DNA of 64,000 bases from Marsupella aquatica (Eukaryota; Plantae; Marchantiophyta): contig OZ316892.1 in the NCBI GenBank assembly GCA_973895155.1, positions 3,723,223 to 3,787,222 of the forward strand. The letters are read 5' to 3'. Every line of letters begins with the position of its first letter. Within the stretch, counting starts at the first letter, position 1. Under the pieces are notes generated by a model. The model was not told the DNA's origin. It saw only the letters and a program-made list of their open reading frames with translations, and ran no database searches. Below are positions 23,022 to 58,812 of this stretch, in pieces. The translations under genes were made by a program, and so were the position numbers.

Positions 23022-23059
<38 letters not shown>

Positions 23060-29650: not shown

Positions 29651-29692
29651 TCTTGCTCTCCCCATCTGGAAGAGAGCTAGGAACAAGTACGT

Positions 29693-34165: not shown

Positions 34166-34574
34166 AAACAAGAGTTGGGGAACCATATAATTCATGTATA
34201 GAGTATGATTTTACTCTTTTCACACACAAGATCAATGTTTTCTCCTAAACTTTCCCTATAAATTCTCTTCAAAGATTTAAATTTAGTTTTTCCAACAAAA
34301 TTCCTAAATTGCTGGCTGGTTTGGCTGTAGACTCCAATATTAAAAGAAGCCATATAAATTGGTTTTGATCAAATTGTTACACATTAAAACATGTTCATTT
34401 TTTTAAGTTTCCTATAATTTGGATCCTTGAGTTGAGAGACCAGTTGAGAGGCAAATTGAAGAGTTTAGTATAATTAAATGAACCCAATATGATCAATTGA
34501 ATATATAGAATGCCATGATCACTTGATTATACACGTGTACTAAAAGTCAGGTTTCAAGAATTATTACTTGAAGT

Positions 34575-34783
34575 AAACCACAACAGCCCCTATAAAGGGC
34601 TCCGGGTAACCTGTAGCCCTCATTGTAGAGTGCATAGGTTCAGAAATGGGCATTGGGCTCCACAAAAGGTGGTGAGTGCAAAACATTTTATTGGCAAGTA
34701 CTCCACAAAAATTGCAAGTGTTCCACCTTTTATGGTGAGTAGTGAGACATGGAATGGGGCTTTTATAGTGGCAGATGTGGTTT
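34575..34783. mobile_element. MITE-like element, ~209 bp
   Basis: Ends aaaccacaacagcccctataaagggc and gcttttatagtggcagatgtggttt are imperfect inverted repeats. Flanked by AAGT on both sides (alternatively TA). Absent from the related module at ~28850. Confidence 0.65.
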
Positions 34784-37032
34784 AAGTCTTGGGGGTCTCA
34801 AGAATTATTACAAGTATTGAAGTCTCAGGAGTCTCACTATATGGAGGTCTCCCCATCACGTGCAACATTTTCAGGCCTCAGATCCCCTAAAATGTAAGGA
34901 GTTGTTTTCAACCTCTATAAATTGGAGTATTCTTTATTTCAAAATTTTGATTAAAACCACCCAAATGTTCTTACAAGTCTCAAAACCAATAAAGAGACAT
35001 TATCATTTGTTGCAATTAATATGCCATTTTTGTAGAAGTGAAACTCCTAAGATTTAAGTATTTACAAGCATGTCATGTAGATTAGGAAAGCAATAGGGCC
35101 AGCTTGAGGAAGTCTCTATTAATCTGATGTATACTACCCTATCACATCATTTACAGATTCATTTGAAAAGGCTGAGTTGTTTGTAACAGTTAAAGTGTCT
35201 TCACCACCCCCCAGATTTTTTGAAACATGCACTTAACAAGGTTTTTGATCCTTAGTGTATGTGTGTAAGTGTGCGCGCAATCAAGGGGCAGTCCTAACTT
35301 TGCTACTTTTGATAAAATGATCCTTTTGCTTTTGGTACTTTTGACTTCAGTCTGATATGGGAAATGTATGACACAAGCATTGAGATGATAGTTTTATTAG
35401 GAAGTATAAATTGTGGAATTGAAACATAGCAAAACAAATTGGTTAGATTGGAGAAGTAACACAAACCTCGACACAAACCTGAGATGTGCATTTCACACAA
35501 ACAAGTGCAATTCCAAAATCATCCACCGTGCATAATTATATGCTTTGATGAACATTGAAAATGTAACATCAAATTAAATGGAATGACATGTATAGCAAAA
35601 TCTGGGACCAATAGATCTGAAACAAATTAAATATGTCATCATAACTTCCAATTCTAGAGCTCTAGTCATTCCTGTGTACCCAATCATCCATGTAATAGGT
35701 ACAATTTGCCCAGCTAGCAGTTTGCCAATCGAGCTATTGTATGGTTGAAAAAGGGCTGTTTGTTGGTGTTACTATATTGTCGAATTGGTACTTTCTAGCT
35801 TGGGTCTTCCGGAAAACAAGAGGCAATTGCATGCACATGAGGGAGTGAAGAATGGTTTTGGGGTTTGATAGAGTGAACGCAGGCATTGTGGGATTCTTTC
35901 AGATCAGCAGAGTCAGGATGGTTTAAACTTTCAGATTTGCTCGTTGTTGCATATTAATTCCATGATTCATGTAAAATTACTACCGAGTAAAGAGACCAAT
36001 ATAGACCACTTGCATGTACCATCAGAGCTAGACAACTTTAACTGGGTAGCTTTCTGGCGCGGGTTCTGGCCTAGCATTTGGCAAGTGAAATTAAGAGCCC
36101 CCAAAAGTAAAGTGCAAAAAAGAGCGCCAACAGTGACATGAACTTGCATTGATAAACCACTGCAATTAGCTTTGGGCTAAAAGTGAAGTGAAGTGAATTG
36201 GTAAACAATTGCACTTAGCTTTCATTGGGCTGCTGAGGTGCATGACCACCTGACCACATTCGGGACCACATTCCTGGTCTAGCTTACTTCAGTTACGAAA
36301 AAAACGTGTTCATGTAGAATATTGGAAAATGGTTATTGGCTAGTAGCTAGACCAGTCAAAATAATGACTAAACATTATTTTGAGTGGTGGTAGGGGACAC
36401 ACAACAAGTGGACGAAGCGCCTTATATATCCTTAGCAATATAACAAAATACTTATAGTCCTTAATTATTTGGTCTTATTTTGACGATATGCTCCTGGAGA
36501 ACATTCCCAAATAAATTTCCATTAGTACACATTATCCCGGAAACAAAGAAAGAAAGTGATTCCTTGTTTGCAAACGCCGTGTTTAGACAGATTTTTGCAG
36601 GGCGTCTTAAAGAGTTTGATTTCCCGAAAGTATTGAATCAATTTTGAATTTGGACGTGGGGACTGTAGGACAGGAAAGCTAGCGCATTAAAACATGACTA
36701 CAGAACAAATTTTGTCCCCTCTTCTCTCCATGATAGTCTCCAAGTACGGGCAGTGGTTGCGGAGGGTTTCTCCCACGAATTCTAATCTAGTTCGACTCTG
36801 CCTACTTGAGACTCATCTCGAATTATGGCAAGTAGATGATGGACCCTGCCTACTATACGACACACCAAACTTACGGTGAGTACTTCAATTAATTAATATA
36901 TAATCAATTAAGGATGGAAAAAACTCGTTTGGCTAATTAAGCCAAAGCAAGCCAGGTTAAATTCCTCGCATAACATTCAATTCTCCGGAACAAGGAGTGT
37001 CCACTTACTTTCTCGATCAAATCTAAAAGGTC

Positions 37033-38443
37033 TCAAACTTGAATATTCCTTCTCTTGGAGCGATTTCTTCCAACTCTGTGGTTATTAAACCAATCCACTA
37101 ACTGTATTCTGCTCAATCCAGTTTCCTCAATCAAAAGTTTTAGTTGGACTTTATTTGGCTGTGGACGCCCTGGATTCTGAGCTTGCCAATCTGTAAGAGC
37201 GTTCGTGATGTGCGGTTGAAAGTGAGATTTCAGTTTTCCTTTGAGCTCAGGATTCTCCTTCAGATTTCTCTTCCTTTCATTTTCAAAAAGGCTCGAGACC
37301 TGGCGCTTATCCATTCCGTTGTCTAGTGCTATGTCTTCACATTCTTTGTCGGAGGGGTAAAAGCTGCCAGGGTTCTGAAGCCGCCAGTTTTTAGGAATGT
37401 CCTTGATGTGCTGAGGATGCACAGCAACTCTTCTGTCGTTCTGGCCTCTCATGTATGTGTAAACCCATTTGCAAACCTCCTTTATGAATGTTTCCATTGT
37501 GACTGGAACATTATCAGCCTGTAATGTTTGAAGAGTTGAATCAAGACTGCCCAGTAATGTTGGAAGAATTGGAGATCTTGCCTTCTTCATAGTTTCACAG
37601 AAGGCCTTCCCAACCATTTTATTAAGTAATAGAGTGGCCTCCATAATCATGTCTTCAGTGACAAGAGCGTACGTATGCTTGACCTTCCGTCATGGCTTCA
37701 AAGCTAGATACAGCTGCATCAGATGTCACCGGAGGTTCTCTATGATCAGGTCCAGCCATCGGTGAGCTGGAGAGAGTTTGTCCCGTCTCCGATTCGTGGT
37801 ATTCTGGTGCTGGACCTTCCGTCATGTATTCAAAGCTAGATACAGCTGCAGCGGATGTCACCGGAGGTTCTCCATGATCAGGTCCAGCCATCGGTGAGCT
37901 GGAGAGAGTTTGCCCCGTCTCCGATTCGTGGTATTCTGGTGCTGGACCTTCCGTCATGTATTCAAAGCTAGATACAGCTGCAGCGGATGTCACCGGAGGT
38001 TCTCCATGATCAGGTCCAGCCATCGGTGAGCTGGAGAGAGTTTGCCCCATCTCCGCTTGGTGGTATTCTGGTGCTGAACCTTCCGTCATGGCGTCAAAAC
38101 TAGATACAGCTGCAGCGGGTGTCACCGGAGGTTCTCCATGATCAGGTCCAGCCACCGGTGAGCTGGAGAGAGTTTGCCCTATCTCTGATTCGTGGTATTC
38201 TGGTGCTGGATTGTTGGGACGTGGTTGCCCGCAACCATCTCTTAGCTCTGATTCGGAATGATCCGTTGGAAAACTTGGAGCTTGAGGGCCTACATCCACC
38301 ATGTTTGATTGGTCCAACTGGTTTGTATCCCGATCTGGCCCTTCAGATTGGAAACGCTGCACATTGGGAACCTCAATGCTCCCATGAGTTTGTACTAGTT
38401 CGTGGAGCTCTGGCCGCACGTCAAATCCCAAACCTTGGCTCAT
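37033..38443 (-). pseudogene. Gene encoding an acidic repeat region and two tandem TALE-like homeodomains, split by one frameshift
   Basis: ORF 38443-37655 (four 44-aa repeats) and ORF 37650-37033 join into one frame if the TACG duplication at ~37668-37675 is removed (GCA TAC GCT CTT GTC ACT GAA GAC ATG). HD1: KNWRLQNPGSFYPSDKE...GMDKRQVSSLFENERKR. HD2: LTDWQAQNPGRPQPNKVQ...TGLSRIQLVDWFNNHR. Confidence 0.75.
37682..38209 (-). repeat. Coding tandem repeat, 132-bp (44-aa) unit x4
   Basis: ccttccgtcatg at 37683, 37815, 37947 and 38079. Unit APEYHESETGQTLSSSPMAGPDHGEPPVTSAAAVSSFEYMTEGP. Confidence 0.95.
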
Positions 38444-39074
38444 TTTCTAGAACGCGCCTACCTTTCAGCTGCAAATATGTCACAAACTCAAGCAGAGGTT
38501 CTGCAGTCTATATATCCCTTGAGAGTTTCTCCTCCTTTAGTGGTTTTAGATGCTCTGAAGTTCAGCTACAATCTCTCTTAATTTCTCCTCCTTTCGTGGT
38601 TTTAGATGCTCGTAAGTTCAGCTGCAATCTCTCTTCCTTTTGATCCCAGCCGATCTCACCTCCCTAGAAGATTTTAGGAACTGGAGGTTCCTTCTCTTGT
38701 TCCTTCCCTGGTTATTTCCTCGTGTCTGCAAGTTAAGTACCTACGTATTCTCAACGGCCCACTTAGCTCTGGTTGCACTAGCTCCAGGCCTCCGATGTCC
38801 CGGCCAGTATCCTCGTCCCTACTTTAGATCCACACGTCCCCACGTTTGGTCAGATCCGGCAGTCCTTGCTACTCTATAATTGCAAAAATCCGTCCAAATT
38901 AAGTGAAAGCTCTCCATATGAAACTTACGTTGGAGCAAATTGAACTCACAAGAAGGCTTCCGCCAACTTTCAGGATAACAAGCCTTCAAAAATTTCAGAA
39001 CCTTGTACAGTGCCCTTGATAGATCTTTTTGGATGCTTAAATACTTTGAAATTCAACATTCCACATCTGCTGGT

Positions 39075-41122: not shown

Positions 41123-41910
41123 GCTGCCAGCTATTGCTCAAAGCAAAACGGGACACATGCCAAAAAAAGGCTTGGCTCAACCGGAAAAGAGTGGGATTCT
41201 CTCCCATGCAATTTCTTTTCTATACGTTCCAAGACCTTTGCTTTGAAGAAGCTCGTAGCCAGATTGCCGGCCTCTCACCCAACGAGCTATTGTGAGAACC
41301 TCGTTACTTAAGGGGACCGCAAAATTCGGATCAATTAATTCGGGGGTTATGGTGGGGGTCCTCTCCAAGTTCACCAGCGATATCGTCACATGAAACGGAA
41401 TGCTTCAGTACCCATAAATTCGTGTTGGTATCTTCTACATAAATCTTAGGATATCCACTTGTAGGGCTTGTCATCAAATACTTTTTGGGCTCTCCGTTGA
41501 CCCTCCTTGGGTCACCTGTGAAGCACATTTCTGGAACTTCGTCCGAAGATAGAGGCTCAGAACTCTCTTCTAGTCTCCATGAATTAATCCACCACGCTCC
41601 ACAAAGTGTTGAAGCGATCTGGGCACCAGTCTCCGTATCCTTGATGCAGAAATTCATGAAGTTTACCTTCTGCTCGGAACTGGCAATTAATTAATTAACT
41701 ATGCAACGCGTGTCCTCCCGTTCCGATCCTTGACTGTTTGTGCACTCTTTCCACAGCCCTTGTCCAGTCAGATGAGGACATAAACCTTTTCCTCGTCCTG
41801 GTCAACTATTTGTCTTCTGTCGTTGCCTTGCTGGTCTGTGCTCTGTGGACTTTTGTGTTTGTGAAAACAAACATATAAGTTACCACTGGATGCAATCAGC
41901 TGACAAAACC
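41123..41910 (-). pseudogene. F-box/kelch-like gene copy B, 3' part; its 5' part is at 56897-56954, beyond the CACTA element
   Basis: Collinear with 21671-22452. The N-terminus MSSFFEELLPGILDDVT reappears immediately right of the CACTA end. About 280 bp present in copy A are missing at the junction. Confidence 0.85.
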
Positions 41911-41936
41911 ACATACACTACTACATATTTGCCGTT

Positions 41937-42290
41937 TTTGCGAAGGTCAATTACAAGGGGATAAACGCACCGCGAAGCGCCGTTCATCGCTCATCTTGCG
42001 ATGCAAACCGCATCTCAAACTGCGACACTGACACTCTCGCAACCATTATTTGCGAAACCAACATCTTCGCAAATATTTGCAAAACCAAATATGTCGCAAA
42101 ATGTTTCTGAACCTTTGAGCATTCTACTTAGTAGCGATGTTTACCGTTTCGCAAACAACTTGCGACGCCGATTGCATCGATAACGTTGCGATATTTTTGT
42201 TATCGGAAAGCGGCGTGCGATGCAAAATTAATCGCAATACAGCGAAACTAAGAGAATCGCTAGTTTGCGAGATATTGTGGCTCGCAAAAT
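41937..42290. repeat. Left subterminal repeat array (TTGCGA/TCGCAA core); right array at ~56365-56850
   Basis: Many tttgcgaa / ttcgcaaa / tcgcaa variants in both orientations, CpG-rich relative to the flanks. Confidence 0.85.
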
Positions 42291-43139
42291 CATGGCGCCT
42301 CAGTGGTTCTCTTTAGAGAAGGCTTGAGTTTCGGAAAGTTGAGATGCGAGTTGCTTCGGAATGTAGCGATGGTGTTGGGATGGGATCTAGCGATGAGGTA
42401 GGAATCGTTAATGTAGCCATTAGGTTGAGATGGGTAGGGGTTCGCAAAATGGTTCGGAAATTTGGTTTTGGGGTTTGTCAGATTTAGAAAGGGCATGGGA
42501 CAAGGAATGGAGGAAGGAGGGTCAAGGAGAGAGGAGGGAGGAGGGAGGAGGCACACTTTAGGAAGAAAAGGAGGAGGAAGGGTTGACTTAAGGGGGGACA
42601 AGGAACAAAGGGAGGAGGAGGAGGGCGGTTTAGGGTGCACAAGGAAATGAGGGAGGAGGGAGCGTACCTACCTACAGTTTAGGGAGGGAAAAGGAAAGGA
42701 GGGAGGGAGGGTGGAAGGTATAGGTTTAGGAGAGGGACAAGCCAAGGAGGGAGGAGCATAGGTTGAGGACAGTGAAAGGTGGAAAAATTGAGGGCATCTA
42801 TAGGTTTTAAAAAGGAAGGGGTTGAGACAAGGGGAGGAGGGAGGTGGGTACAAGTACTAGAGAGAAAGGCTAGGGGGTGGGAGAAGGAAAGCTACGAGGA
42901 GGAATGACTACAAGCGACATGAGTTTTCTTTTCATAAAGTGTACCAAAAGGTGTGGGAGTGTACATAGGACTGTGGGGATGGAAGATGTAAAAAAGCCAC
43001 ATTTAAAATTGATATACTTACAAGATTGATTTGGGCAAACATAAATTTATTAATAATTTAGAAACACATATTTCTCCAACCAAGAAGAGAGATCCTCATA
43101 TGTTCAAATCTAACTATATATCCACATAACATATACCCC

Positions 43140-46100
43140 TCAAACTTGGTCCTCATCCTCTTCAGGTTGGGACACAACCAGAATATCTGCTTTTCCCCAA
43201 CAACTGAACGAGATCGTGGCACATATGTGATGACAAGTGACCATTCCTCTGGGTTTGGGGGGTATGGAATATAGAAATATTGTTCCACATGACTTGGAAA
43301 AGTGAACGGCTCTGATGTTTGCCAATGAGATGGCTGGAAACTAGTGGCAGATGTCTTTAGCCGTGTAAATCCACACTCATCTTGAAGCACGGTGGGATTG
43401 TTACCTGCAAGGTTCACTTTGAACCACTTGCACTTGAAGACATACTCTTCAAACTTTGATTGTGCATCATAAGAGATCACTAGGATCTCCTCTATCTTTC
43501 CATAATGTGGCACAACATCTCGAATAATATTTGTGTCATGGCGACTGCTGCGGGAATCTTGAGAGAATTGTCCTTGAACTCCACAATCAAAGGTACGACC
43601 CCTCTTCTCATCAAGGGAATAAACCCTAAAATCCACCAAACCATAAGGACATGTTACAAAAATAGGCATAAACATATAACAATTCATATCACATGCCAAA
43701 AAATTGTCTCTTCAATATATGTGGGTGTATTACACATAAATTAAAATCACCATAGATGAAAGGTTACTAAGGTACTTGGAAATAACCTGAAATGTCTCCC
43801 TTGTGTCCACATTGCCGTCCTTGTTGTAACCATTCTCAAGGGACAATGAACAATGGTACGGACATCATCTGTGATAGCTGGAAAATGTAATACATTCTCT
43901 CCCCTCGCTACCATGTCATCCACCTCAACCAACTTCTCCTTCATGTAGTCATGGTACTTTGGAAAGATCCTTGGTCTTCTACTGGTACTTTTGGCATCCT
44001 CATAGAAATCCCTCCATTCTTCCATGATAGTGCTGTTACTCAACATGAATGTGGTTAGTTGTTTCAACTCCACTGGTGTCAACATGCGGGTTTTGATAGC
44101 ACCTGTTAAACGATCCTCCTCATCTTCCCTCTCCTCTACCCAAGTACGGGGAGAGGTACGATCAATTGTGGCTAATATGTTACTGCAATAGAACATACTC
44201 TCTGCTGCCAAGTATCCTGTAGCCATGCTTCCCTCAACCCGTGCCCGGTTACGTACATAACCCTTTAATACTGCCATGTACCGTTCCAACCAATACATCC
44301 ACCGACAATGCACAGGACCAGCAATGGCCACCTCATGAACAAGATGAACAAGTAAATGCACTTGGTAATCAAAAAAGGAAGGAGGAAGGGCCTTTTCTAA
44401 CTTGCATACCACCTCTGCTGCCAGTACCTCCATTCCCGGGATCTCTTCACAGTATATCTCCTTAGAACATACCCATCTCAATAGTTTTCCCAATGACCAA
44501 ATGGCATCTTGCACTTCTGAACTTGCCAAACCTATTATGGCCACGGGCAATATATGCTGCAATAACCGATGATAGTCATGCGTCTTGAGATACATTGGCC
44601 ACTTATGATTGTCCTCCATCCCAAAGGCCTTCCAGAGATTGGCACCATAACCAGTAGGAAACCGCATGCCTCCTATGTGATTCCTAAACTCCCTTCTCTG
44701 GCCAACAGGAAGCACCCATGGGGCTGAAGGTCGATGTTCTATCCCTGTGATAGGATCAATTGTGACCCATACATCTGGATGCATCTCAAGATCCTCACAA
44801 GCCTCCCTGAAGTTAGTGTCCTTTTCTCCATAGAAAGCCTTTATCAAAGCCTTTCCCACATTTCCCTCAATGTGCATGGGGTCTAATAGATGGCGGATCT
44901 TCAACTCTCCCCAATAAGGCAAAGTGGTTAATATACTCCATCTAGTCAACCCGCTACCCTCAAATTGCATGGGATCCTCCGGGTTTGCCACTCTATCAAC
45001 CAAGTCTTTCCAATGTGCAAAAGTTGTTGGCTCTGGTATATCACGTTCATCACCAAAGGGCATATCAATGGAGGAAAATAGTAGTGGGTCAAACCTCATC
45101 TGATGGCCCATTGGCAGAAACTTTGTATGCCCAAGATAAACAATCTTGTGAAGGTGTGATGAGTACTTGGCTATATCACCAAGACTTGGGCCACAAGTGG
45201 AGCAAGCCTTGTAGCCTTGGGTTTGCAACCCACTCACAAAGCCAAATCCTGGTCATATAGACACACATAATGTAGAACTAGCACATGGAAATGACGGGAT
45301 AACATGCATTATCATATCATGCTGGATGTAAACAAAAAAAGAGTGTTGTAGTTTCATAGTTCTTACCTGGGTAGTCATGCATGGTCCACATACAAACCCC
45401 TTTTAGTTTAAAAACCCGTGGGGTACCCCCTATAGTCTTTCGACCGTCATATGCCCATATTCCGTCCCATAATTTTTGGAGTTCCTCAACCACTAATGCC
45501 AAATAGGTGTCCATGTTCTTCACCTTCTTTGGCCCTGGGATAATCAAAGATAGCAATAAAAAACCCTTTTTCATGGACAACCATGGTGGAAGGTTGTAAT
45601 TCATGAGAACCACTGGCCAAACTGATGTAGGTCTCCCCTTCCCTCCAAGTGAATGAGGGCTAACCCCATCTGATGCCAACCCAAGTCGCACATGCCGAGG
45701 CTCACGCTCAAAATCTGGCCATGTTGACTCCACATGTTTATGAGCAGGAGAGTCAACTGGTAATCGCATCACACCGGGCTCCGAACGATGCTTCTTGTGC
45801 CATACCATCAACTCGGCCAAGTCAGAACATCTATACATGTGCAACAAACGAGGAATAATGGGAAACCAACGAACTACTTTTCTTGGCACCTTCCCGGTTA
45901 GCATGTTTGGGTCATACCGTGGCTCATGACATACTGTGCATTCTGTCATATGGGCTTTGTCCCCATGAAATAATATGCAATCATTCACACAGGCATGAAT
46001 GATATGGTAATCCATGCCAATGGATGAGAGAATCTTCTTTGCATCCTTCCAAGTTCCAGGCAACACATTCTCCAAGGGTAACATCAAGTCATGACAATAT

Positions 46101-46549
46101 TCAAATATGTCTGATAACATAGAATTGTTTGCCTTATGTTTGGCCTGAATGTTCAACAACCCCAATATGGCTGACAAACGACTCAACCGAGCACCCTCAA
46201 AGATAGGTGTCCGGGCATGTTCCTCAGCCTCCTTCCATTGTTGTTGTCCCTCTGGAGTATGTTGTGGTCGTGGGTCATTTTGGGGGGCAGCTCCTTCAAC
46301 ACTAATGTCAGGGATACCATCTTCAACATCAGCACCAAACCAATCAACCATGAAGTCATCCATGGCTCTGTCCTGGTCATGCATGACCTGGTCATCAGTC
46401 TGAGGTGTTGCTTCCTCATCACCATGATCACTTACATCATTACTTGATGAGGAATCATCCTCTGATGGTTCTCCCTCTTCTGGCATGCCCATCTCCCGAT
46501 ATGCTGCTCTCAACCTTCGTGGTAACATTTGTTGAGATGGTTGCACATT
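43140..46549 (-). CDS. CACTA transposase (TnpD-like; Transposase_21 / DUF4218 / DUF4216-type regions), main exons
   Basis: Motifs IHACVNDCILF, C-x2-C..PRY, RLGLASDGVSP, WPVVLMNYNLPPWL, WTMHDYPG, HLLDPMHIEGNV, LKTHDYH, FFDYQVHLLVHL, GPVHCRWMYWLERYM, FKCKWF, DECGFT, EPFTFPSHVEQYFYIP. Introns 45366-45249 and 43786-43626 (GT-AG) join the three ORFs. Probable frameshift near 43195. Confidence 0.93.
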
Positions 46550-46800
46550 CTACGCACGACACAACCAAAAAACCTCTTGATGTATATTTCACCAGGTACA
46601 ACAAAAACAGACTTCAGACCATTCATTCAAGACAAATTAACTATCAGTTTTAAGGATTGATTGCATGCATTCACATTAAGAACTTAAGTGAAGGGCCACA
46701 CCAAAATTATACTACTCCAAAATGAGGCCAGAGGACATGTATATAACATTGATAAGTGTGAAGTACACACAAGGTACAAGAGGATGTATGACGTGGCTCC

Positions 46801-47496
46801 CTAATCCCACTCATAGTGTGTGAATAACTCATCTCCAGCTCTAATAGTCCTAGTGGCAAGAACTAAGCAATGGTCCTTATGATATGTCGTTCCATATGGT
46901 GCCGGCATTGGGCCATCAGTAAAAACCCACTCACAATTGGCCCTACGCTTGGGTCGAGTCCCCACAGTACTATTTATAAAGCCAGCAATATTCCCATTAC
47001 ATACGGGATCACCGTCTATCACCCGCTGCTCACTATACCTTCTAGTGCTACCATGAAAAATATCCATCTCCAAGGCATATGTTTTCCACTCAGGATGTTG
47101 TGCAAGGATCATGTTCCAGTGTCTTCTCTTGTAGATGGGTCCACCGTATGGGAACAAAGTAGGACCCTCTCTACCATGAGCACTTGACCCACTCCCATCA
47201 TCCATGATGATATCCTCACAAGCAAATACTCCATATCCGTGTCTCTCTCCAAGTGTGGAAGCTTTCACAATACAATGTCTACCCCAAACCACAATCTCCT
47301 CATCATAACCGGGAAAATAAGGCAAGCCAAGAGTTATAGGATCCCAATCTTTGATGATAGAGGCACACTTGCCAGTGAATGAACAAATGCCCCACCTACC
47401 CTCAACTAGTGTTCTTGATGGGTCACTGGGTGCTCATGGCCTCCTCTTGGACTGGGGCCTGGACCGGGGTCTTTGTGTCTCTGTGGTGCGTCCCAT
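46801..47496 (-). CDS. Stand-alone SET-domain protein inside the CACTA element, with one in-frame TGA near the N-terminus
   Basis: ATG at 47496 (GCCATGG), 232 codons, TGA at 47434-47436. SET motifs: IVKASTLGERHGYGVFA (GxG), PYGG (YxG), IAGFINST...ANC (RFINHS-like), LATRTIRAGDELFTHY (ELxxxY). Ends 3 residues after the terminal Tyr, with no post-SET cysteines. Confidence 0.85.
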
Positions 47497-48395
47497 GGCT
47501 CCCTAAACCCAAGAAACCCCCCAACTCAAGCCGATTCCCATAGGTTTCGCGCTTGGCGAGGCCGTTTCCGCGGCTTAGCGGCATGGGACGCTACTAACCT
47601 TCTACTACTACTATTAACATTGTACACATATATACTGGACAGATCCTTCATCGGGTCATGAGATACGTAGCCGGCCTAATCTAGGCCTTCCCTCGTCTTC
47701 CCCTCCATCTTGTTAGGTATGTTTGGATTCCGCCGCCGGAATGATCCCCAATAGGCTTGGTTAAGCCGCTAAGACCTCTCTCAGCTCGACACATCCAACT
47801 CTCACTCCCCTGCTTACTTTCCTTCCTTTTGGTTGATGTGGGCACTCTTCACACAAGTTAATGCGACACACAAATAACAAAATGACTCATTCTGACTGAG
47901 TCATACCATGCACTTGCCATACAAACAGTACATCTCATACACAAGCTCTGCGAACTAAGCCGTGAGACCAACTCTATTCAGCTCTTAGGCATGAGGAAAC
48001 ATGAATATACACAAGGGTCACTGTATGACTAACCGAGAGCTTCTCGTACTACTTGATCCCAGCCCGACTGGTGCAAACTAAAAACTTGCTAAAGAAGAGG
48101 CCCTGAGCTCCCCGCTGCCCAGGTACTTATCCTGGTAGTGGATCCGCCTAATTCTTTGCAGCGTAAGCCTAATCTACCTAACAGTAATCTACTTGCCCGG
48201 ATCTACCTATGTATAGCAAGGCAGGAGCACAAGTGTTGCTCCTACCAGTGGAACCGCAATCCCACTAAGCTAAGTGTTAGGGCCGCTCCTGGTCCTGATC
48301 CTAATCCTAAACTTGGAGATCAGCGCCCGCCCTGCCCACTCACGCCTCCTCCCTCCACGTCCGCCCTTCCTAAAAGGAACGGCGCCCTTGCACTG

Positions 48396-51300
48396 TCACG
48401 ACATCGGTGGTGGATCCTTAATGGACGCCCCCAACGCTTCCTCCTCAGCCACTGCCGTAGGTTCGTTCTCTGACACATTACCTGCCCTTGACTGAGTCAA
48501 CTCTCCATCGGCCTGACTGGGTCCACCATCGGCGTCGGCATCGGCTCGGGAATCGGTTACGGCCTCCGTCTCGGCTACGGTCTCCCCGGCCTGCTCAAGA
48601 GGCGGATCTGGGATACCGGCCTCATTACTGAGTAGTTCGGCTTGGGCTGCACCATCCCCACCCTTGATGATAGCGAAATCTATTGCCGTATTCATGCCGG
48701 AGGTTGGTGCTGGGTCTACCTCCTTGGTCACCACGGCCTGTGGAGTCGAATTACTCCTTGACCCTGAAGGTTTCCGCTTCTTCTTCTTTTTTGGTTCGGC
48801 AGCTGGTCCCTTCCCCTTCCCACTTACCTCCGGCACTGGTGCAGGTGGCGCGGCTTTTTCTTCGGCCAGTACCACTCCTGGTAACTTGGTTGCCCCAATT
48901 GGAGTTGGGCCTGATGAAGACAAGCACTTAAATATTGCGGCTTGTTTCTTCAGCCGCTCTGTTTGGTTGTCGGCCCGCCGCTGGAGGTTCTCCATCTTCC
49001 TCGTGATTTCCTCCAACTCCTCCTGGGTCTCATCCAGGTCCTTGCACGCCTCCTCTAGTTCCTTCTGGGCTTCCTCCCGTTCTTTTTTCAAGGTAGTCCT
49101 CTCCTCCTGGGTTGCTCTTAGCTCCTTGTCGAGCTCTGCAATGATGACAGACTCCATCTGGTTCATCTTGGCGTAAGTCTGATCGAGCATCTCGTCCTTC
49201 TCCCTTAGGTCGGCCTTGAAGCTGGCCGTCAGGGACGCAAGCTCCTGCTGCAGCGCCATAATCCCTTGATAGGATTTCCCTAACTCGGCCTCCTTCTACT
49301 CAAGGGCTCCGCGGATTTTCTCGAGCTCCCCCTTCAACGCCCATTCCTTTCTTTGGGTCTCCGCCATGGCCCGGCTGTTGGCTATTATGTGGGCCTCCTC
49401 TGCATTCCTCAGCTCTCGCTTCCACTTCTCCCTCTCTTTGATCGTATCGGCCAACTCTCCCTGCGTCTGAGTCAGTTTATCCTTGATATTCTGATTATCA
49501 GCCTGCGCGATGTCCAACTGCCCCTGCATGATGTTCAGCTCATGCCGTTTAATCCGCAGTTCATCTTGGGCTTTCTTGGCCGCCCTTAGATCTTCAATCT
49601 CGGCTTCCATCCTCCTAAGCCGCCGAATGACCTCGTCCTTCTTGCTTCTCTCTAAAGCCACCGCTTCTTCTAATTGGTGCTTCTCCAACTGCTCCCTATG
49701 GAAAAAGGGTCCTACCTCCAACTCCTCTCCAAAGATGCCAAGCGCAAGTTCCCCACACATCTCACCATACTCCATGGCTCTATTCTTAGCGTAGGTGGAG
49801 TAAGTAGGAGTGATCGGCATCGCCCATCGCGGCCTCTGCTCCCAAGCCGTCTTGCGGATCTCTTCAATCGTGGCTAGAGGTTTGCTTCCTTTTTCGGCTA
49901 GCCGCCTGATGTCCTCCGACCAATCTCCTCCTGGTAAATCCTTTTCCCTAGCCAGGGCTGCCTCCTCTTCCTGCCTGATTCGCTCCTGAAATTCCTGCGC
50001 CATCTGTTTTATGCCGTCAAAGCTCGGGGGAGCAACATCTGGTGGGGGAGACTCAGGGCTACTCTGCTGGTTGGGGTCCCCTCGTACTACCCTTGGAAGT
50101 GTGGGGACAAACCGGCCACAGGTCCTTACTCCTGGAACGTGATGGTCCGACCCATAGCCGGAGTTATCATGGCTGCAGTCCTCCACTGCCTCCTCTACTT
50201 CTTGGACGTCCGGCTTTTCCCTCTCCTCTTCGTCGATAGGAGCTTCGGGCAATTCTGCCCCAGATTCAGAGCTTGAGACTCCCACGTACATTTGAACACC
50301 TGGCTTGGATTCCGGCCTGATTCTCTCCTTGTCTCCAGCAAAGGGGTTTTCTCTTGTGAGCCGATGTAGGCCTACCTCTGGAGTAGTGTCCTGCATTGTT
50401 GCCGTTGCCGTTGTCGTTGCCGATGCCGATCTCTTTTCTTTCTCCAGTAGTTTCAGCAGACTCTGCATGCCTGGTTGCTGCATTGGCAAGTCCTCCGTCC
50501 TTGGCCTAAACACTTGCTCGATCGTAGGGCTAACAGGTGGTTGAGGCTTCTCTGCTAACGGCCTCGGCGTTGGAGCTTCCTCGGGTGCCCTTACTTGCAG
50601 GGGAAGTATTGGGGCAAAGGTCTGACCTCTGGCATACCGGCACAATAGCGGCATGTGATAGCCAAGCCGCGACACGCTCCCCATGCCGATTACCTGCTGC
50701 TCCTCCTTTAAGATCTTCTTCAATTGGTTGAGGAGGTACCCGTTGTAGTCCCGGCTTGGGTCTGGCCTCTCTGCCAGATAGACCTGTGCTTTGCCGATCT
50801 CTGCCCTCGGCAAGTTACAATGCATGGTCACCCGCAAGAAGTCGATCATCTCTCCTATATGCGGGTTGGTGCAGGTGTTCCGGAAGAAGCCATTCTTCGT
50901 TGATGGCCCGGGGAACGACCGGAACTCCTTGTCAGGCAAGGTCTTCCTGGTATCAACTTTGGTCTTATTGCCTATCGGCAAGCCAAACACTTCGGCAATC
51001 ACTTTGGGAGTAAGATAGAAATCCTTCCCATATATCCTCGTGCAATTGGTCTCGGGTTCCCATGACCCCACGTATTCTAATAGGTCTGACTCCGGTACCT
51101 CCGGCTTCAGCCATGGTAATCTTACAAAGGCCTCTAAGCCGGATCCGGCCATGAAGCCTTGGTACTTCTTGGTCTGCATGGCCGTAAAGCATGCATCCTC
51201 CTCCCGTGCAAAATGTAGTTGCACCTCCATCGGTAGGGTTGCCGCCCAGCCCTTCCAGGTGTCATCCCTGGTTGGAATGGCCTTGATGGGATCGACCTCC

Positions 51301-52031
51301 TCCTCTTCGGCTTCTCCCTGCCTCCTGCTCTGCTGCTCGGCTGGCTTCTTTGGTGCCGCCGACCTCGTTCTTTTTGCCGGGGTGGCTTCATCGTTGACAG
51401 CTCCCTTCCTCTTCATCTCTGCTGCCGTGGAGGTTTCTCCTAGCACCGTTGCCTGGGTCCACCTTTCCGTGCTACCCTTTAATTCCCAGTGTATGTCGTT
51501 GCAGTTCTTGATGGCCTCTCGGATGCCGACGACGCTGTCTTTGCAAAACAGAAGATCGTCGAGCTGATTGGAAGTAGGAGTCCACAAGAACTCGTCCTTG
51601 ATGAGTTCGCCTCCTAAGAAAGCCGTCTTCTGCAGCTCCCACAATCGAGCGAGCTCCTGCCGTTCTCGAGCTGCCCTTTCTGATTCCTCGTCCTCGTAAG
51701 TCTTGATGTACTCAGTTGCCCGTTCGAACAGGCATCCCCAGAAATGTGCCGCTTGATTGACGTTGCTCATACCCTCCTTAGGTCGATCGTTGGTATCTAC
51801 TCTCTCCCCGAGTGCTTGCCTAAGCAGCTAACAGTAGTTGGCCTCCCGTAGTCGTCTGCCTAGTTCATGCTCGCAAATGAGCCATCGTCTCCTGCAAGCG
51901 CTCCTTACCCCTCTCCTCTTCAGGTCCTTCCTCCCGTTGATCCTTCCTAGCCGCCGACGCTTAACGCGCCCTAACCCTAATCGAGTTTTCACCCCCAGCG
52001 TCCTTACCTCCAACCTCGGCCCGGGTTCCAT
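48396..52031 (-). CDS. Large (~1210 codon) gene with a plant-mobile-domain (PMD)-like segment and long coiled coils; two in-frame TAG stops
   Basis: ORFs 52031-51828, 51770-49296 and 49259-48396 share one frame, separated only by TAG at 51828 and 49296. LLEYVGSWEPETNCTRIYGKDFYLTPKVIAEVFGLPIG resembles the PMD core (W.PET.TF....E..IT..DV....GLPI.G). E/K/R/Q-rich heptads and KKKKKRK lie in the C-terminal third. Confidence 0.6.
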
Positions 52032-52399
52032 GGTTGCCCCTAATTGTTTATATTTTCCTTGTTTTGTCCCTATACTAAGGTGTTTCTAGGGTGCCTTCCT
52101 GCTTTACCCACTTAACTGGCTGAGTGATTCCTGGCTAGGCATCACAGTCTCAGTGGGCACATGAGACTGTTCCTCTTCAGTCCCATGATTGGTACTGATC
52201 CCTACACCCAAGGCTTGTGAAAGTGCATTGCCTATAGCATCTAAAACTCCTTGTGATGGGACATAGGGTGGTGGTGTCACCGGTCTACGCATACTGGATC
52301 CCTATTCCATGCAAAAACCCACAAAAAACCATATGTGTAAACATTGATTCACTTATGAAAATATGAGGGAAAAAAGGCAAACAATTGAAATCCACGTAC

Positions 52400-52624
52400 C
52401 ATATGGGATGAAGAAGCCCCCAGAGTAAGACCCCTGTGACGTCCATATCTCTCAATATGTTGAGCACACACATAAGATTTTTGAGAAACTTGGCCCACAC
52501 ATCTGGTGCACTCACAAAGTCTCCGGGGAGGACCACGAGGACCGGTAACCTCAGGTTGAGGAGGAGGGGGTACATCATCGGAGGAGGAGTACTCACTACT
52601 GGATAGTTCAGAGGAGGATGACAT
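52400..52624 (-). CDS. Leader exon encoding a transposase-associated Cys/His domain; probable first exon of the transposase
   Basis: ATG 52624, MSSSSELSS...RLCECTRCVGQVSQKSYVCAQHIERYG (CxCxxC...H...G, as at the N-terminus of CACTA transposases). 75 codons ending in a phase-0 donor ATG|GTACGT. A second small exon starts at 52301. Confidence 0.65.
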
Positions 52625-53264
52625 ATCCACTGCCACATTACATTGCATGTAGGGCATGATTAGAATCCCTCTCGGCCAAAAAATATCCTAAAACTAAACT
52701 ACAAAAACCCTTTTTTGTTTAGCATGAAACCCAAAGGAGAGTGTCATGCACAAAAATATCACATTGTCACCCTTGGGAAAATTGTAATGGTCTAAGCCCT
52801 GAATTAGGTTAGTGAATTACCTGAATGAGACCCGGGCTCAACAGTGCCTATAGGTCGTGTGGCTCAATGAACATGAGCCAAATCTAGAAGTAGGAGGAAA
52901 ATACTGGAAACAAAATGTAAGTTTTGGATAGTCATTAGCATCTCTCAAGTTGTGGAACCCCAAACATAAGTTACACATATATATATATATATATATATTC
53001 TTGCAAAACAAAAAATGGCAAGGTTTATGAAAAATCTCCACTAACAACACTACATACATGTTATACCTTTTAGATGCCTGGGTCTCCACAATGCATATGC
53101 ATTAGACAAAAGTTAAGGAAGTAGTGATGTCCCTGGGCTGTATCATGATTACATGGGTTTTCCCCTCAATTGTTAGCATAAAAACCTCTTAGAACTTGCC
53201 CTCATAAGTTACCATAAAATTAACCCAAGTGTCCATGAAAATAGAACCTGTCTTTCCCTCCTAA

Positions 53265-53680
53265 GTTGGCCTAAACCCCAAAAGCCAAAACATAAACACC
53301 TCCTCTTACTCCAATACATATAAGCCAAACATTCATAAAATGAAATCCCCCTGGCCAAACCAAAACCCAAAACACCTCATATTACCCTCCAATCTAAGCC
53401 CAACGTACCTTCATAAAATAAACGCTCCCCCAACCAAACCAAACGTCAAACATAAAATCCCTCCATTTACCCTCCAATACACATAACCCCAACCTTCATA
53501 AAATAAAAACCCTCCCAACCAGGCAAAACCCAAAAGCCAAAATATAAATCCCCGTCTCTTACCTTCCAATATAACCCCCAACCTTCTGAAATAACACTCC
53601 CCCCCAACCAGGCCAAACCCAAAAGCCGTAACATAAGACCCCTCCTCTTACCCTCCAATGTCAGCACTTTTAAACCCCCC
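53265..53680. repeat. Degenerate A/C-rich tandem repeats (~60-65 bp) between the divergent CACTA genes
   Basis: Recurring aaaacccaaaagcc...ataa...cctc..ttaccctccaat...cttcataaaataa blocks. Confidence 0.7.
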
Positions 53681-53999
53681 AACCATTATATGATCACATG
53701 CAATGAATTACTTGTACCAAATTTAATGTTTATGACCCCTCTTAGTATCCCTGCTCACATAAAATACACATGCGAGATGGGGGTTTTCGCAAACCCAATA
53801 GCGAACACGTTTGCGAAGCTGTATTCTTCGCAAAGATAGCGTTTGCAAAGCTGGTTGAGAAGGTAGAACCATCGCAAACTGCGATGCGAATGACTTCGCA
53901 AACCCTAACTCTACTGTCCTTATCATTTGCCGAGCACGGACGAGGCGAATCCATTTCTTTCGGGCCTTGGGAGAGAGCAGCGCAGGCAAGGGAGGAGCG

Positions 54000-56113
54000 A
54001 TGGCAAGTGGAGGGGGAACTGGAGGTGATGGAGGAGCTTCTGGCAGAGCGGAGGCAACCACTTAGAGGAGGAGGATCGACTTCAAAAGATCGTGGATGAC
54101 CATTTCTCGGTTGCGCAGTTGAGTAAGATTGATTTCACCTCTCCAGCAGGGCTTGCATCGTTGAGTGCGTTATTGGGCCAGACCTTGCAATCTGGTCTCA
54201 GTGCAGGGAAAGCAGCAAGAGAGGAGGAAGAAAGGAGGACAGCCGAGCAGAAGGCCGCTGAGAAGAAGCGAAAGAGGGATGAGAGAGCTCAGGCTGGAGT
54301 ACTCTCCCCTCAAGCCTTGGAAAAGAAGAGGAGGAAAGATGAGAGAGACTTGATGAGGAAATAGAGGGAGGTGTAGAGAAAGAAGGAGGAGGCAAGGAGG
54401 AAGTTGCCTCTGATTACATTAGAGGATGAGGGAATTCCCACAGAGCTTGCTTACAATGGGGCCAAGAGCACAATCAGACACATTGTGTCCACAAATTTTG
54501 CAAGAGGAGTTGAGCGGGGCACTCTCTCCAAGGCAGAGCAGAAGCGAGTGATCAATCAGGTGAAAGATGCACTCCGAAATGGAGGAGAGATGGATTCACA
54601 GTGGCTTGCTGATAAAATCTCAAATTCCATGTCACAAGCACGATACCATGACAGGATGAAGATCAGGGCTCACTTGAGAGATCTGGAGGAGTACAGGAAT
54701 TTGGGGAGGCCGCTGCAGTTCTCAGAAGATATCTGGCAGGCCTTCTACGCCACGGAGGTGAAGTTGAAAGCAGCCAGGATCCTGAATGAATTTACAGAGA
54801 AGTTGACAAAGGCCCGGAAGGCAAAGGAGGCCGGGAAGTCTGACTGTGACCTGAAGATGATGGAGCAGAAGGTGGCCCAGCTGCAGCAGGTTGTAGCAGA
54901 GGTGGGAGATCCGCCCAACAAGTTCTTGAAGGCAGCTGAGAGAGTCCGAGAAAAGCCCAACATCACCCACAGGCTTGGTCAAGGTGGCCTCCCCGACCTC
55001 AAAGTAGCATTTGTGAGTGCACCGCCCTCTCCTCTCTTGACTTCTTACTCATCCAATTTCTATTCCAACACACCTGCAATGCCCCAACTCTTTTTTGCTG
55101 TGGCACCAAGTACTTCCAATTGGAGTTGTTGTGTCAGATTAGGTCACGTACATTTGCTTTCCTTTTGACTTTTCGTCATAACAGAGTTTGCGAAGCAATT
55201 GCGATGCGCGTCGCTTCGCACACCTTGTTATTCACTTTTTTGGAAATAATTTTGCGATGCCCGTGCGAAGCCATGCGTATCTCAATTACTTTCGCAACCT
55301 AGTTTTCCCTTACGTTTGCGAAGCTGGAGACTTCGCAAAATTCAAGAATTTGAATTTTTGAAAATTTCAAAACGTTGAAGTGTTGTTTGAGGGTCGTAAG
55401 CCCCCATGCCACCCTTGTAAAACCACCCCCAACCTAAGCCCCAACCCCACCAGCACCTAATTAACCCCTCTAATTGTTTTAAGGCATTTTGGCTTGTCGT
55501 TATTGCTTGGTTTTGACCAATTGTGCCGGTTTTTGTTTTGGTTAGTACAAGAGGTACAAGAGGAAGATCACAGCGCCTGAGATGGAGGTGGGCCAGAAAC
55601 ATGGGAAGGAGCATCTCTTTTGGCAAGTTGATCAATTATTGGTGAGCGTTAATTTTCAGGTTAATGTGTGGATTGCATTTATGAAAAATTCTCTCTTATG
55701 TCATTCACTTAATTGTAAGGTTCTATATGACTAATGCATGGCTGGTTTGCTAATGTAACAGAGACCGGATGATGATGGTGACTCCCATACCGAGGGTGAT
55801 AGTAGCGATGAGGATGAGGAGGGGACAGGGGAGGGGAGTACTGCTCCTGCTAGTCGAGTCAGGCCAACTAGCACTGGGGAGCAGTCATTTGCATCAGCAC
55901 ACTCCACTGGTGCTGCGAGTGGTAGTGCGGTAGGGGATGGGGATGGTGATGGTGATGGGGATGGGGATGGTGGTGGTGATGGGGATGAGGATGAGGATGA
56001 GGAGGGAGACCAAGAGGAGGAGGAGGCCCCGGTCCCCCCCCCCAAGAGCACTCAAGGGCAAGGAGAAGGCCAAGGGGAAGAAGTCAAGGAGGGGCAGGAA
56101 CTCTCGTTTCTAG
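54000..56113 (+). pseudogene. Second CACTA gene (TnpA/ORF2-like), spliced and degenerate
   Basis: ATG 54000, frameshift ~54060, two in-frame TAGs at ~54362-54375. Contains RP...SEDIWQAF and THRLGQGG (resembles the H..G.GG motif of TnpA/Transposase_24-type proteins). Exons end at ~55012, then ~55546-55641 and 55762-56113 with an acidic tract and basic tail. Transcribed divergently from the transposase. Confidence 0.65.
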
Positions 56114-58436
56114 CTCTATCTAGATAGGTGCCTAGATTACCCTAGAGACTTAGGTAGTTCACATGTATAGGGGGATTAGCATGGACATGCAACTTTTAGA
56201 TAAGGGTTCTTACCCTTCCATTTTGTAACTTTTGTACATTTTGAGTAATGCCATTTTAATCGCGGCATTTCGGTCTACCTACATCCCTTTTCTCCCTCCT
56301 TCAACTGTATGAATTGTCTCCCTAAACCACTAAACCCTATTATACCCTAATACTTCAAAAATACCTTTTGCGAAACACTTGAGAACCAGTGTCATCTCAA
56401 ATAGCCAAGACACAACCATCGCAAAACGTTCTAAACGCTCATCCTCGCAAATTTTGCGACATTATGTTAATCGCAAATATGCGAACACACGATTTCCGCA
56501 TGTTTGAGATGTGTTTAATTTCGCAAATGTAGCGAATATAAATGTATCGCAGTATTGAGAGAAAAAATGGCTCGCAATCTACCGATGTGTCCTAAATCGC
56601 AATCTGGCGATGATTTAAGCATCGCTACATTAGTGTTTGTCGGTGAATCACAAACGCTCCTATAGTTCCTGTTTTGCAAATATTGCGTTAGGTATGGCAT
56701 CGCAGTTTTGCGATTTTAAAAGAGTCGCAAAGTGCGAAGCTTTTGCGAAGGTCCGGTTGCAAAGGTGTGGGCATGGAAAAGAGCGAAGATGTTGAGATGC
56801 GCGACGTTTCGCAACAAGGAGTTGGCCGATATTGTTTCCTTTGTTGCATGCGAGGGAGGGTGTTTCACAAAAGAGGGTCATTGTGTTGTAGTGATATATC
56901 ATGGTAACGTCGTCTAGGATCCCTGGAAGAAGCTCTTCGAAGAAAGAAGACATTTCTTGAGACTTCGATCCGTGAAGAATGTCTTGATCTGGATCGGCAA
57001 ACAACCTATGGAAATAATGACCACATCAAATCAGATTAGAAAAAGTCAGATAAACTCACTCAACGTATATAAATTAAATGCCATATATAGCTGCAAATCA
57101 ATGCCATCTGCCCTTCAAACAGGTACATATAGATCGAGTGCTGCCATACCAAACTATAAGGACATGGAGAGTTGATCGAAGAGCAGGGAATAACAAACCA
57201 GGTTTCTAGTTAGCCTCCTAGCTAAATAAATGAAAGCAGTTGGACTGTTTTAGAATTAACTGAGAACAAAGGAGAGCAACTGCGTAGAGGTCGAGAGCAT
57301 GTAAAAGACTTGCAGATCGATATATATATGCATCACCATATATACGTAGAGACTGCACCTGAATATATATATTGAAGAGAAGTGGAGCCCGATCTGGAGG
57401 CGAATTAAATTGGTGCGCGCCGGGATTGGTGGTTGTCCTCCAATTCTGTACGTCAAAAACAATGTTCTGCGAGTGCACTCCTCGATCTCCAACCTTTCCT
57501 GTATGTACTAGTATCTTCCTGCTAGGAGGTAAGCACGAACTAAATCTCAAGTTTACACTACAGCTCTTCATCTCTCAGGAAAATAGGTCCTGAGAGATCG
57601 ATGAAGAGACGTGTGGGAGAGAGAGAATGACGAGTAAGTCCCCCAGACCCTAGTTATATACTCTGATGTGGGCGGATCCAGAGGGGAACAGATCAGAACT
57701 GATGAATGACTCAGAAAATAAGTGCATCTCCTGCCCTCGTTCCCTGGACCTGCAGGTAGTACGTTGAAGCAAATACTAACCAATGACAGGCTGACTAGCA
57801 ACGTACAACAGGCTGCATCATCTTGGGGCAGCATTTTAATAGTTAATTCTCAGGTGACACCGTGAACGTACAGCTGGTAAGATAGAGGCTTCCTACTGAG
57901 CACAAGAAATTAACCAGATCTGAAGGCTCTGCAAGCATTCCTGCGAGACAAACACAGATTTGCATCTCCGTGTCATAATGTCATGATAGGGTTTCCTGTC
58001 ATCAGTCAGTCTTTCTTTCAATTAATAACTAGTTCAGGAGCTACCTACTTATCCTGTCTTTCGTTTGTTAGTATTTGCGTGCTTCAATTTGTTGCAGCAA
58101 CGTACTGAATAGCTACATGCGTGAGATGCATTGTTTGTCGAGTCATTGATCTGTTAATTTTGTCCATCAATCTGCTCAAGTTTGCAATATGAGATGCGAG
58201 CTAGCAGCAACGTACGTGCTGAATAGCTACATGAGCTAGAGGCATTGTTTGTTGAGTGATTGATCTGTTAATTTCCATCCATCAATCTGCTGGAGTTTAC
58301 AATATGAGATGCGAGCTAGCCCACAATCGCTTTTCTCGCTCTTCCCGCCAGGCCATCCGTATTCAGGGCCGGCAGTGACTCACCTAGTGCATGAGTTGAT
58401 CCCTGAGGATAGAAGTACGTTTTGCGATTGAGGAAG

Positions 58437-58720
58437 TGTCAGGAGTCACTTGACGCCTTTTCTTTTCCATCGGCTGACTGCTTTCACATCAGAGTTTAGT
58501 TTGGCGGGACCTTCTCCTGCTCTGACTCCTGTTTTGATCTTAGCATGATCGTTCAGTTGCAGCGCCTTGTTCCACGTCTTGTTCCACCGCTGGCTTCTTG
58601 CTGGCCAAGTGGTGGTTTGTTTTACTGCCTCCCTTTCGGGGTACTATATGATATTGTTTCCCCTCTTTGTTGAGGCAGGGATTGTTCATTCTTTTCTGTG
58701 TCACCAGATTGCATGTCATA
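58437..58720 (+). repeat. 5' LTR (284 bp)
   Basis: tgtcaggagtcac...gcatgtcata; direct repeat of 63347-63658. Confidence 0.95.
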
Positions 58721-58812
58721 GGTTATGGGCCTTTATCTGATGTTGTAACCATTCCGTCACAGAATTCTTCTCTCCGCTCATTCTGTTCCGTTTTTCTGTT
58801 CAAGTTTTCTCT

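Follow-up and report, generated by a model that had tools for sequence, protein, structure and literature searches.

The DNA analysed here (the window, a stretch of 64,000 nucleotides from the liverwort Marsupella aquatica) contains a CACTA element in which a SET-domain exon lies just upstream of the transposase exons. The element, its exon layout, the linkage of the SET exon to a family of related elements, purifying selection on that exon, the SET fold of its product and three lesions in the window copy are established by the comparisons below. The overall reading offered here, the chances of which are about even, is that the window element is a damaged member of a bryophyte CACTA family whose spliced SET product would methylate the element's own chromatin and thereby keep the element expressible.

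Features of the element (positions in the window):
41916-56893: CACTA (EnSpm) element, 14,978 bp, with CACTAC at both ends and a 3-bp target-site duplication
43058-43625, minus strand: last tnpD exon, DUF4216 (Pfam); acceptor picked among six AG sites
43787-45248, minus strand: tnpD exon with the end of Transposase_21 and DUF4218 (Pfam)
45367-46549, minus strand: first tnpD exon, Transposase_21, with a conserved phase-0 acceptor AG/AAT
46801-47497, minus strand: 3' part of the SET exon, with the remainder of the linker and the complete SET domain to TAG (homologue alignment, Pfam)
47498-52179, minus strand: nested insert, 4,682 bp, flanked by two copies of an 8-bp direct repeat
52180-52301, minus strand: SET exon, 5' portion (linker helix), up to and including the upstream 8-bp repeat copy
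52302-52399, minus strand: intron 1, 98 bp, GT-AG, with the same junction in annotated homologues P0001, P0045 and P0070
52400-52624, minus strand: exon 1, 75 codons, with a Ser-rich start, a C-x-C-x2-C-x13-H motif and a phase-0 GT donor
54029-55168, plus strand: third gene, divergent, with two stops in the window copy; matched in 9 of 34 related loci

The CACTA element and neighbouring repeats

An earlier reading of the letters alone (the sequence-only reading) had placed the SET open reading frame inside an element defined by its terminal repeats and target-site duplication, and this placement was borne out. The duplication is ATA/ATA (41913-41915 and 56894-56896), 14 of the 20 terminal bases match, and the pair of ends is joint best among the CACTA/TAGTG pairs with a 3-bp duplication in the 64-kb window. 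The same termini recur in four related loci: the 5' end in L007, L008 and L034, with three different flanks, and the 3' terminus in L020. Subterminal motifs of the TTCGCA type number 18 in the first kilobase and 18 in the last, relative to 2 over 10.5 kb of the interior (1 to 11.5 kb), and two more inner clusters hold 10 and 12 motifs. Additionally, CpG depletion is the same in the SET stretch (0.32) as in tnpD (0.29-0.35).

A host repeat occurs in two copies in the window (21671-24785; 41123-41910 plus 56904-63969), the second of which is the landing site for both the CACTA and a Copia element. The latter (58436-63660) has near-identical LTRs (246 bp, 99%) and slight CpG depletion (0.77). No clean empty site for the CACTA was found in the host repeat: both flanks match the other copy (21671-22452 and 22737-22988), which does not fix the junction because about 270 extra bases lie at that place.

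Several other features of the window were recorded. A 1.1-kb CACTAC...GTAGTG stretch (24724-25822), with a TAA duplication, 14/20 terminal matches and internal 126-bp repeats, is probably a non-autonomous CACTA. Two foldback structures are present, at 27661-30112 (arms of about 900 bp, 92%), with CACTAC-type ends at 28167 and 29606, and at 30379-35736 (arms of about 450 bp, 84%). On the minus strand, 37033-38446 contains two overlapping intronless open reading frames, which are perhaps mobile; the downstream frame has homeodomain-type matches (Homeobox_KN, E 1e-11; Homeodomain, E 1e-7) and the upstream frame has a 132-bp tandem repeat. Lastly, a 701-codon frame on the plus strand (1941-4046), in a G-skewed stretch and with a weak zf-RVT match (E 0.011), is perhaps a LINE remnant.

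Layout and lesions of the SET gene

The sequence-only reading described an intronless 232-codon gene with a single TGA, and translation of the minus strand from 47496 to 46801 does give 232 codons with one stop, at codon 21 (47436-47434). The part after the stop matches the Pfam SET family PF00856 (E 3.2e-6, 27.9 bits; cut-off 22.4). As had been claimed, the frame has the GxG, YxG, N-S and EL-x-x-x-Y motifs, has no pre- or post-SET cysteine clusters, and is co-oriented with the transposase, ending 251 bp before its first exon. What stands of that reading is therefore the element-borne SET domain, and what falls is the gene model. The gene has two exons separated by the 98-bp intron, and the nested insert splits the SET exon. 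Because of this insert, a one-base shift and the TGA, the supposed 232-codon gene corresponds to the downstream half of a gene that is dead in this copy.

Full-length homologues of 343-359 aa align to window blocks 52624-52400, 52301-52188 and 47497-46801. They begin with the same Ser-rich stretch and C-x-C-x2-C-x13-H motif as exon 1, which resembles the transposase-associated domain that normally starts CACTA transposases. The description of the protein as minimal had thus overlooked a first exon and an N-terminal zinc motif, and what had been taken for an Arg-rich N-terminus is the linker between that motif and the SET domain. The ATG at 47496 was considered as a start codon and rejected, as it lies inside the duplicated 8-mer and is off-frame with the upstream exon. 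Apart from the SET domain itself, the full-length homologues contain no recognisable accessory domain: only PF00856 comes near its cut-off, and no pre-SET, AWS, CXC, post-SET, SRA or PHD was found.

The TGA had been regarded as the only lesion and as a CGA>TGA change. The second point fits, since two of six compared homologues, both from Calypogeia, read RRPRAP across the site, in agreement with an Arg-to-stop change. The first point missed two further lesions, the insert and an extra base. Without the insert and one repeat copy, the window has 211 bases from the start of the SET exon to its GRWG motif, relative to 210 in six of the eight relatives measured and 204 and 209 in the other two. 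Therefore, the SET exon of the window copy has three lesions. The SET gene is dead in this copy, though not in the family as a whole, and the feature itself is real.

The nested insert has alternative bounds that give 4,684 bp, TG...CA ends and a 6-bp duplication. Within it, 52031-48396 is a single intronless reading frame that spans about 1,210 codons and is interrupted by two stops; it has a long coiled coil and matched none of the 34 related loci. Over 48396-51827, GC is 55% and CpG is 0.69, versus 0.32 in the SET stretch. No Pfam family scored above cut-off in the insert, and no LTR pair and, by eye, no terminal inverted repeat were seen. The Atlas gave weak leads to Transposase_32/ATHILA, at 0.88-0.89. 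The insert, which has a short hairpin close to its right end, may be either a large solo LTR or some unclassified element.

SET fold and active site

The presence of a SET fold was confirmed by several comparisons. The predicted model has a pLDDT of 90.3 and a pTM of 0.86, and PF00856 was matched at E<=0.1 in 36 of the 39 family members. A Foldseek search of the PDB returned 311 chains at E<=0.001, and all of the matches listed were SET enzymes, with LegAS4 and SETD8 leading. By VIA-align, Set1 (Z 12.2, rmsd 2.5 over 124 residues) and EZH2 (Z 12.2, rmsd 2.6 over 133) tied with SET8 (Z 11.9) and SET7/9 (Z 11.8); PR domains were also among the fold matches, with Z of 10.9 and 10.7. Phaeovirus SETs topped the viral library, and SET clusters were reached in the Atlas at 0.97. 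At the sequence level, a single-sequence search of the PDB gave no SET and three unrelated matches (E 0.12-0.38), whereas the family profile found SETs. The best of these was LegAS4 (E 2.6e-6; E 7e-8 by Foldseek), and host enzymes in the PDB reached E 1e-3 or weaker.

SET motifs are named I (GxG), II (YxG), III (R-x-x-N-H) and IV (EL..Y), and it is in motif III that the family departs from the usual form. Across 39 sequences down to 23% identity, the GxG glycines are kept in 38 and 39, the motif-II Tyr/Phe in 39, the motif-IV Glu in 39 and the final Tyr in 37, and at least 36 have a small or aliphatic residue two positions before that Tyr. The motif-III Asn is present in 34, and the next residue is Ser in 37 or Asn in 2. 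The motif reads G-[YF]-I-N-S, with His in 0/39 and Arg in 0/39, and Gly or Ala stands where most SETs carry the Arg. The NS for NH first noticed in the window copy is therefore a trait that runs throughout the family and not the result of decay.

Whether such a domain would be active can be approached through LegAS4 of Legionella, an active H3 methyltransferase that was solved with an H3 peptide. Its motif III reads N-F, so the absence of the His does not exclude activity. Yet the lost Arg calls for caution, as does the absence of a post-SET lid: the protein stops three residues past the final Tyr, and in many SET enzymes such a lid completes the cofactor site. Overall, the balance tips slightly towards an active SAM-dependent lysine methyltransferase.

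If the domain is instead catalytically dead, then it might work as a decoy or scaffold that binds methyl-lysine or SAM, for instance in competition with PRC2/SUVH at the element, or might cap the transposase complex via the shared zinc motif. The altered motif III and the lack of a post-SET region are in keeping with this, as is the presence among the fold matches of PR domains, several of which are without activity. However, the GxG, the motif-III Asn and the final Tyr have been kept down to 23% identity, and LegAS4 is likewise without the motif-III His; a dead domain is thus considered unlikely.

Equally unlikely is an active enzyme with another target, which would place a repressive mark on the element or on host genes, or would modify TnpD, the third protein or a host silencing factor. 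Some viral and bacterial stand-alone SETs repress host genes, and both kinds are close to the family in fold. EZH2 is a joint best fold match, and a first exon shared with the transposase would put the enzyme beside TnpD. On the other side, enzymes for H3K4, H3K27, H4K20 and H3K36 are near-tied as fold matches, so that no particular substrate is indicated and none was favoured by the analysis. Moreover, in the available text of the sources, the accessory factors whose function was tested are anti-silencing (VANC, PMC5735166; TnpA of Spm3, 10.64898/2026.08.24.746577). An active enzyme acting on the element's own chromatin remains the preferred reading.

A first exon probably shared with the transposase

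The transposase exons match Transposase_21 (E 1.5e-38), DUF4218 (E 1.2e-33) and DUF4216 (E 1.2e-7). For the last of them, three of the six candidate AG acceptor sites keep the frame. Joined by coordinates, exon 1 and the tnpD exons read through 956 codons with no stop; with the last acceptor picked here, the frame reaches its end at 1,145 codons. The splice sites that this would use are conserved among the related loci: the phase-0 GT donor of exon 1 is kept in 15 of the 15 loci in which the match extends to the end of that exon, the AG of the SET acceptor in 20 of 23, and the phase-0 tnpD acceptor AG/AAT in 18 of 20.

Exon 1 also resembles the N-termini of TnpD proteins. Compared with TnpD N-termini bearing PF13963, it gave an hhalign probability of 91% (E 1.1e-6) with identical Cys/His spacing. 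A TnpD N-terminal profile, built from the 17 of 19 N-termini that have PF13963, scored 11.4 bits on exon 1, the best of 1,001 sequences that included shuffles of exon 1 itself. By the same profile, the first tnpD exon is without the N-terminal Cys/His motif. The Pfam PF13963 model gave no match on exon 1, and among 117 transposase proteins scanned, none was annotated with exon 1 spliced straight to TnpD. Taken together, the junctions and profiles make it quite likely that alternative splicing from one exon 1 would yield either a zinc motif-linker-SET protein of about 345 aa or a TnpD of about 1,145 aa. If the two products are alternatively spliced, then the SET exon would sit in the first intron of tnpD.

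Alternatively, SET and TnpD could be two separate genes in tandem, with exon 1 belonging to SET only and TnpD starting at a Met of its own; this arrangement is partly compatible with the other alternatives. Codon 8 of the first tnpD exon is indeed an in-frame Met, both in the window and in all 20 of the loci displayed, and a separate TnpD start is therefore possible. Some Arabidopsis EN/SPM families do have two head-to-tail genes, according to the available text of PMC13547354. However, the gap between the SET and tnpD exons is just 142-187 bp in the loci (251 bp in the window), the phase-0 AG is kept seven codons ahead of this Met, and the Riccia homologue P0286 has Ile in its place. Additionally, TnpD would then be without the N-terminal Cys/His motif that exon 1 provides. 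Two tandem genes are therefore rated improbable, and the spliced arrangement is retained.

Within tnpD, about 150 additional bp are present in several relatives (L002:2627-2774, L013:2903-3056, L014, L022 and L027) at a place where the frame of the window is continuous (around 44650); the addition is probably an intron, gained or lost within the family. The third gene had no Pfam family above cut-off. Its product may be a TnpA-like accessory factor, although the accessory gene of angiosperm CACTAs usually lies downstream and in the same orientation.

Family linkage and distribution

If the SET exon is a component of the element, then it should accompany the transposase in related copies. The scan of metagenome contigs yielded 34 related loci out of 89 candidate stretches, including two pairs that represent the same insertion (L007/L032 and L029/L030). 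TnpD lies downstream of SET in 22 of the 34 (20 by tblastn and 2 by blastn). The other 12 are cut short: nine stop inside SET or <=230 bp past it, and three break within SET into unrelated DNA. Exon 1 was found in 17 of the 34 loci and the start of exon 2 in 26. Similarly, the Riccia gene models P0086 and P0198 fuse SET-family and Transposase_21 sequence, and because of these models the linkage reaches SETs that are 36-47% identical to that of the window. SET is thus a constant component of the family, a point on which the sequence-only reading had asked for a check.

The homologue search gave 53 matches among 97 candidates. Those with names belong to Sphagnum species, Calypogeia fissa and Riccia sorocarpa; identity is 72-78% for the best of them, and one homologue cluster, in Sphagnum, has 360 members. 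When 1.84 billion representatives were searched with a profile, 129 matched at E<=0.001; 19 of these were looked up, and the ones bearing a species name belonged to Riccia (3) and Calypogeia (1). No named host SET class appeared among the homologues that carry a name, those of the profile search included. Of 46 candidate stretches in viral contigs, none proved to be a relative.

In an unrooted 48-row tree, the window, two Calypogeia and six Sphagnum SETs fall in a supported 14-row clade (100/98), and four Riccia SETs lie outside it. Calypogeia and Sphagnum SETs are 72-77% identical and Calypogeia and Riccia SETs 38-48%. Moss and leafy-liverwort SETs thus lie much nearer to one another than SETs from the two liverwort genera do (P0001, P0004 and P0070 compared with P0126, P0132 and P0146). 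Calypogeia also has a SET lineage at 33% identity. Horizontal transfer of the cassette between a liverwort and peat mosses may possibly have occurred; old paralogous lineages would explain these identities as well.

Selection and decay

Pairwise Nei-Gojobori dN/dS was calculated for the window against the loci, with rows below 60% coverage dropped. The loci are nearly all of one lineage, and the values are thus not independent and amount to one or two contrasts. The median for SET is 0.18 (28 of 34 loci, mean dS 0.93), which is not near 1; the other values are 0.08 for exon 1 (17 loci), 0.08 (12 loci) and 0.12 (5 loci) for TnpD, and 0.16 for the third gene (8 loci). In contrast, the ratio among the loci themselves is 0.64 (300 pairs), and the SET exon is open in only 5 of 26 loci, as expected of decaying copies. 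This is the pattern of a gene that is under selection while its lineage is active and that decays in copies once they are inserted.

That a host SET fragment was passively captured and does nothing for the element would be consistent with the decay of most copies and with the 0.64 among close ones, but is highly improbable in view of the fixed position, the conserved splice sites, the dN/dS of 0.18 between lineages, the absence of a named host class among named homologues and the E of 1e-3 or weaker for host enzymes in the PDB. The analysis thus supports the sequence-only reading that this does not look like a fragment of a host CLF/SUVH/ATX/ASHH gene, and its proposal of a dedicated element-borne SET gene, whose product would be a methyltransferase or a decoy, is supported by the family linkage, the selection and the fold. 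Neither of the two outcomes that it had named as refuting occurred.

Proposed mechanism

In the mechanism proposed here, one promoter near the 5' end would drive one transcript of the element, which would either end in the SET exon or skip it to yield TnpD. The zinc motif-linker-SET protein would find the element, or the transposase complex, via the module that it has in common with TnpD, and would methylate a histone lysine, keeping the chromatin of the element open. That the shared zinc motif brings SET to the element or its transposase complex, and that the resulting mark counters host silencing, is put forward tentatively, with somewhat less confidence than the overall reading. In the window copy, the transposase frame is open and the SET exon is dead, and SET may therefore be dispensable in cis.

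A broader scenario is more doubtful. An old bryophyte CACTA may join its zinc module by splicing to a histone methyltransferase from a distinct SET family, the one with Asn-Ser, giving a self-targeting chromatin writer against PRC2/H3K9 silencing, and the cassette may have moved between liverworts and peat mosses. PRC2 represses transposable elements in bryophytes, according to the available text of one study (10.1101/2022.10.24.513474).

Comparison with known systems

The sequence-only reading had implied that a transposon-borne SET gene was without precedent, which is not the case: the available text of three sources describes such genes (PMC12730594, PMC4067079, 10.1101/2025.02.11.637652). 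The closest known is PAG2, a SET accessory gene of the red-algal Plavaka elements (EnSpm/CACTA superfamily; 10.1101/2025.02.11.637652). As in the window, the SET of PAG2 is a fixed and long-kept cargo of the EnSpm superfamily, with a chromatin role that is proposed only, as far as the available text describes it. That text has the PAG2 SET fused to an N6-adenine DNA methylase, in one of three separate accessory genes, whereas in the window family SET would be joined only to the N-terminal zinc motif of the transposase, likely by splicing, in a canonical land-plant CACTA. The N6-adenine DNA methylase domain (PF01555) was absent from the 39 family members and the full-length homologues, and the family is thereby set apart from PAG2 in domain make-up.

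Transposon-borne SET genes are also found in Phytophthora, in HarbingerS and MuDR (PMC12730594, citing Repbase Reports 2014) and in a proto-Helentron (PMC4067079). These resemble the window element in their cargo but belong to other superfamilies and oomycete hosts, and the available text describes no exon sharing with the transposase. The Helentron SET, as described there, is an intronless separate open reading frame resembling Clr4. A SET gene in a land-plant CACTA, or exon sharing between SET and a transposase, was reported by no paper among the matches listed, in a search whose scope lay outside Repbase and subscription journals. Similarly, the available text of the literature examined describes no transposon-borne SET enzyme with a tested function.

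The proposed role has a counterpart in VANC of the VANDAL MULEs, a protein that recognises DNA motifs and brings about loss of DNA methylation (PMC5735166). Both would be cases of protection from silencing that is encoded by the element, but VANC, as described in the available text, is not a SET protein, unlike the predicted product of the window. The tested plant anti-silencing factors, VANC and TnpA, bind DNA and remove DNA methylation. The window family offers small, intact, multi-copy natural alleles in plants that have workable models and in which PRC2 silences transposable elements. This would allow a direct test of two questions: whether the histone marks on a transposon can be written by the transposon itself, and whether exon sharing gives targeting. 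Furthermore, many models annotated as 'SET domain-containing' in Sphagnum, Calypogeia and Riccia are likely to be transposon cargo, which would inflate counts of host SET genes.

In fold, the window product is like LegAS4/RomA, SET8 and the giant-virus SETs, which are compact and without zinc clusters, although its identity to these stand-alone SETs is <=28%. In gene organisation, there is a parallel with the En/Spm elements, in which TnpD and an accessory protein come from one gene by alternative splicing (PMC13547354), and in which TnpA of Spm3 is anti-silencing (10.64898/2026.08.24.746577). As in maize En/Spm and Arabidopsis EN/SPM3, to the extent that the available text describes them, one CACTA gene of the window would give a transposase and an accessory product by splicing. 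The alternative product of the window would have a SET fold and lie in the first intron, in place of TnpA, and the third gene is on the opposite strand. Therefore, SET domains are known as transposon cargo, and what distinguishes the present family is that SET is carried by a land-plant CACTA and is likely spliced to the transposase's own first exon.
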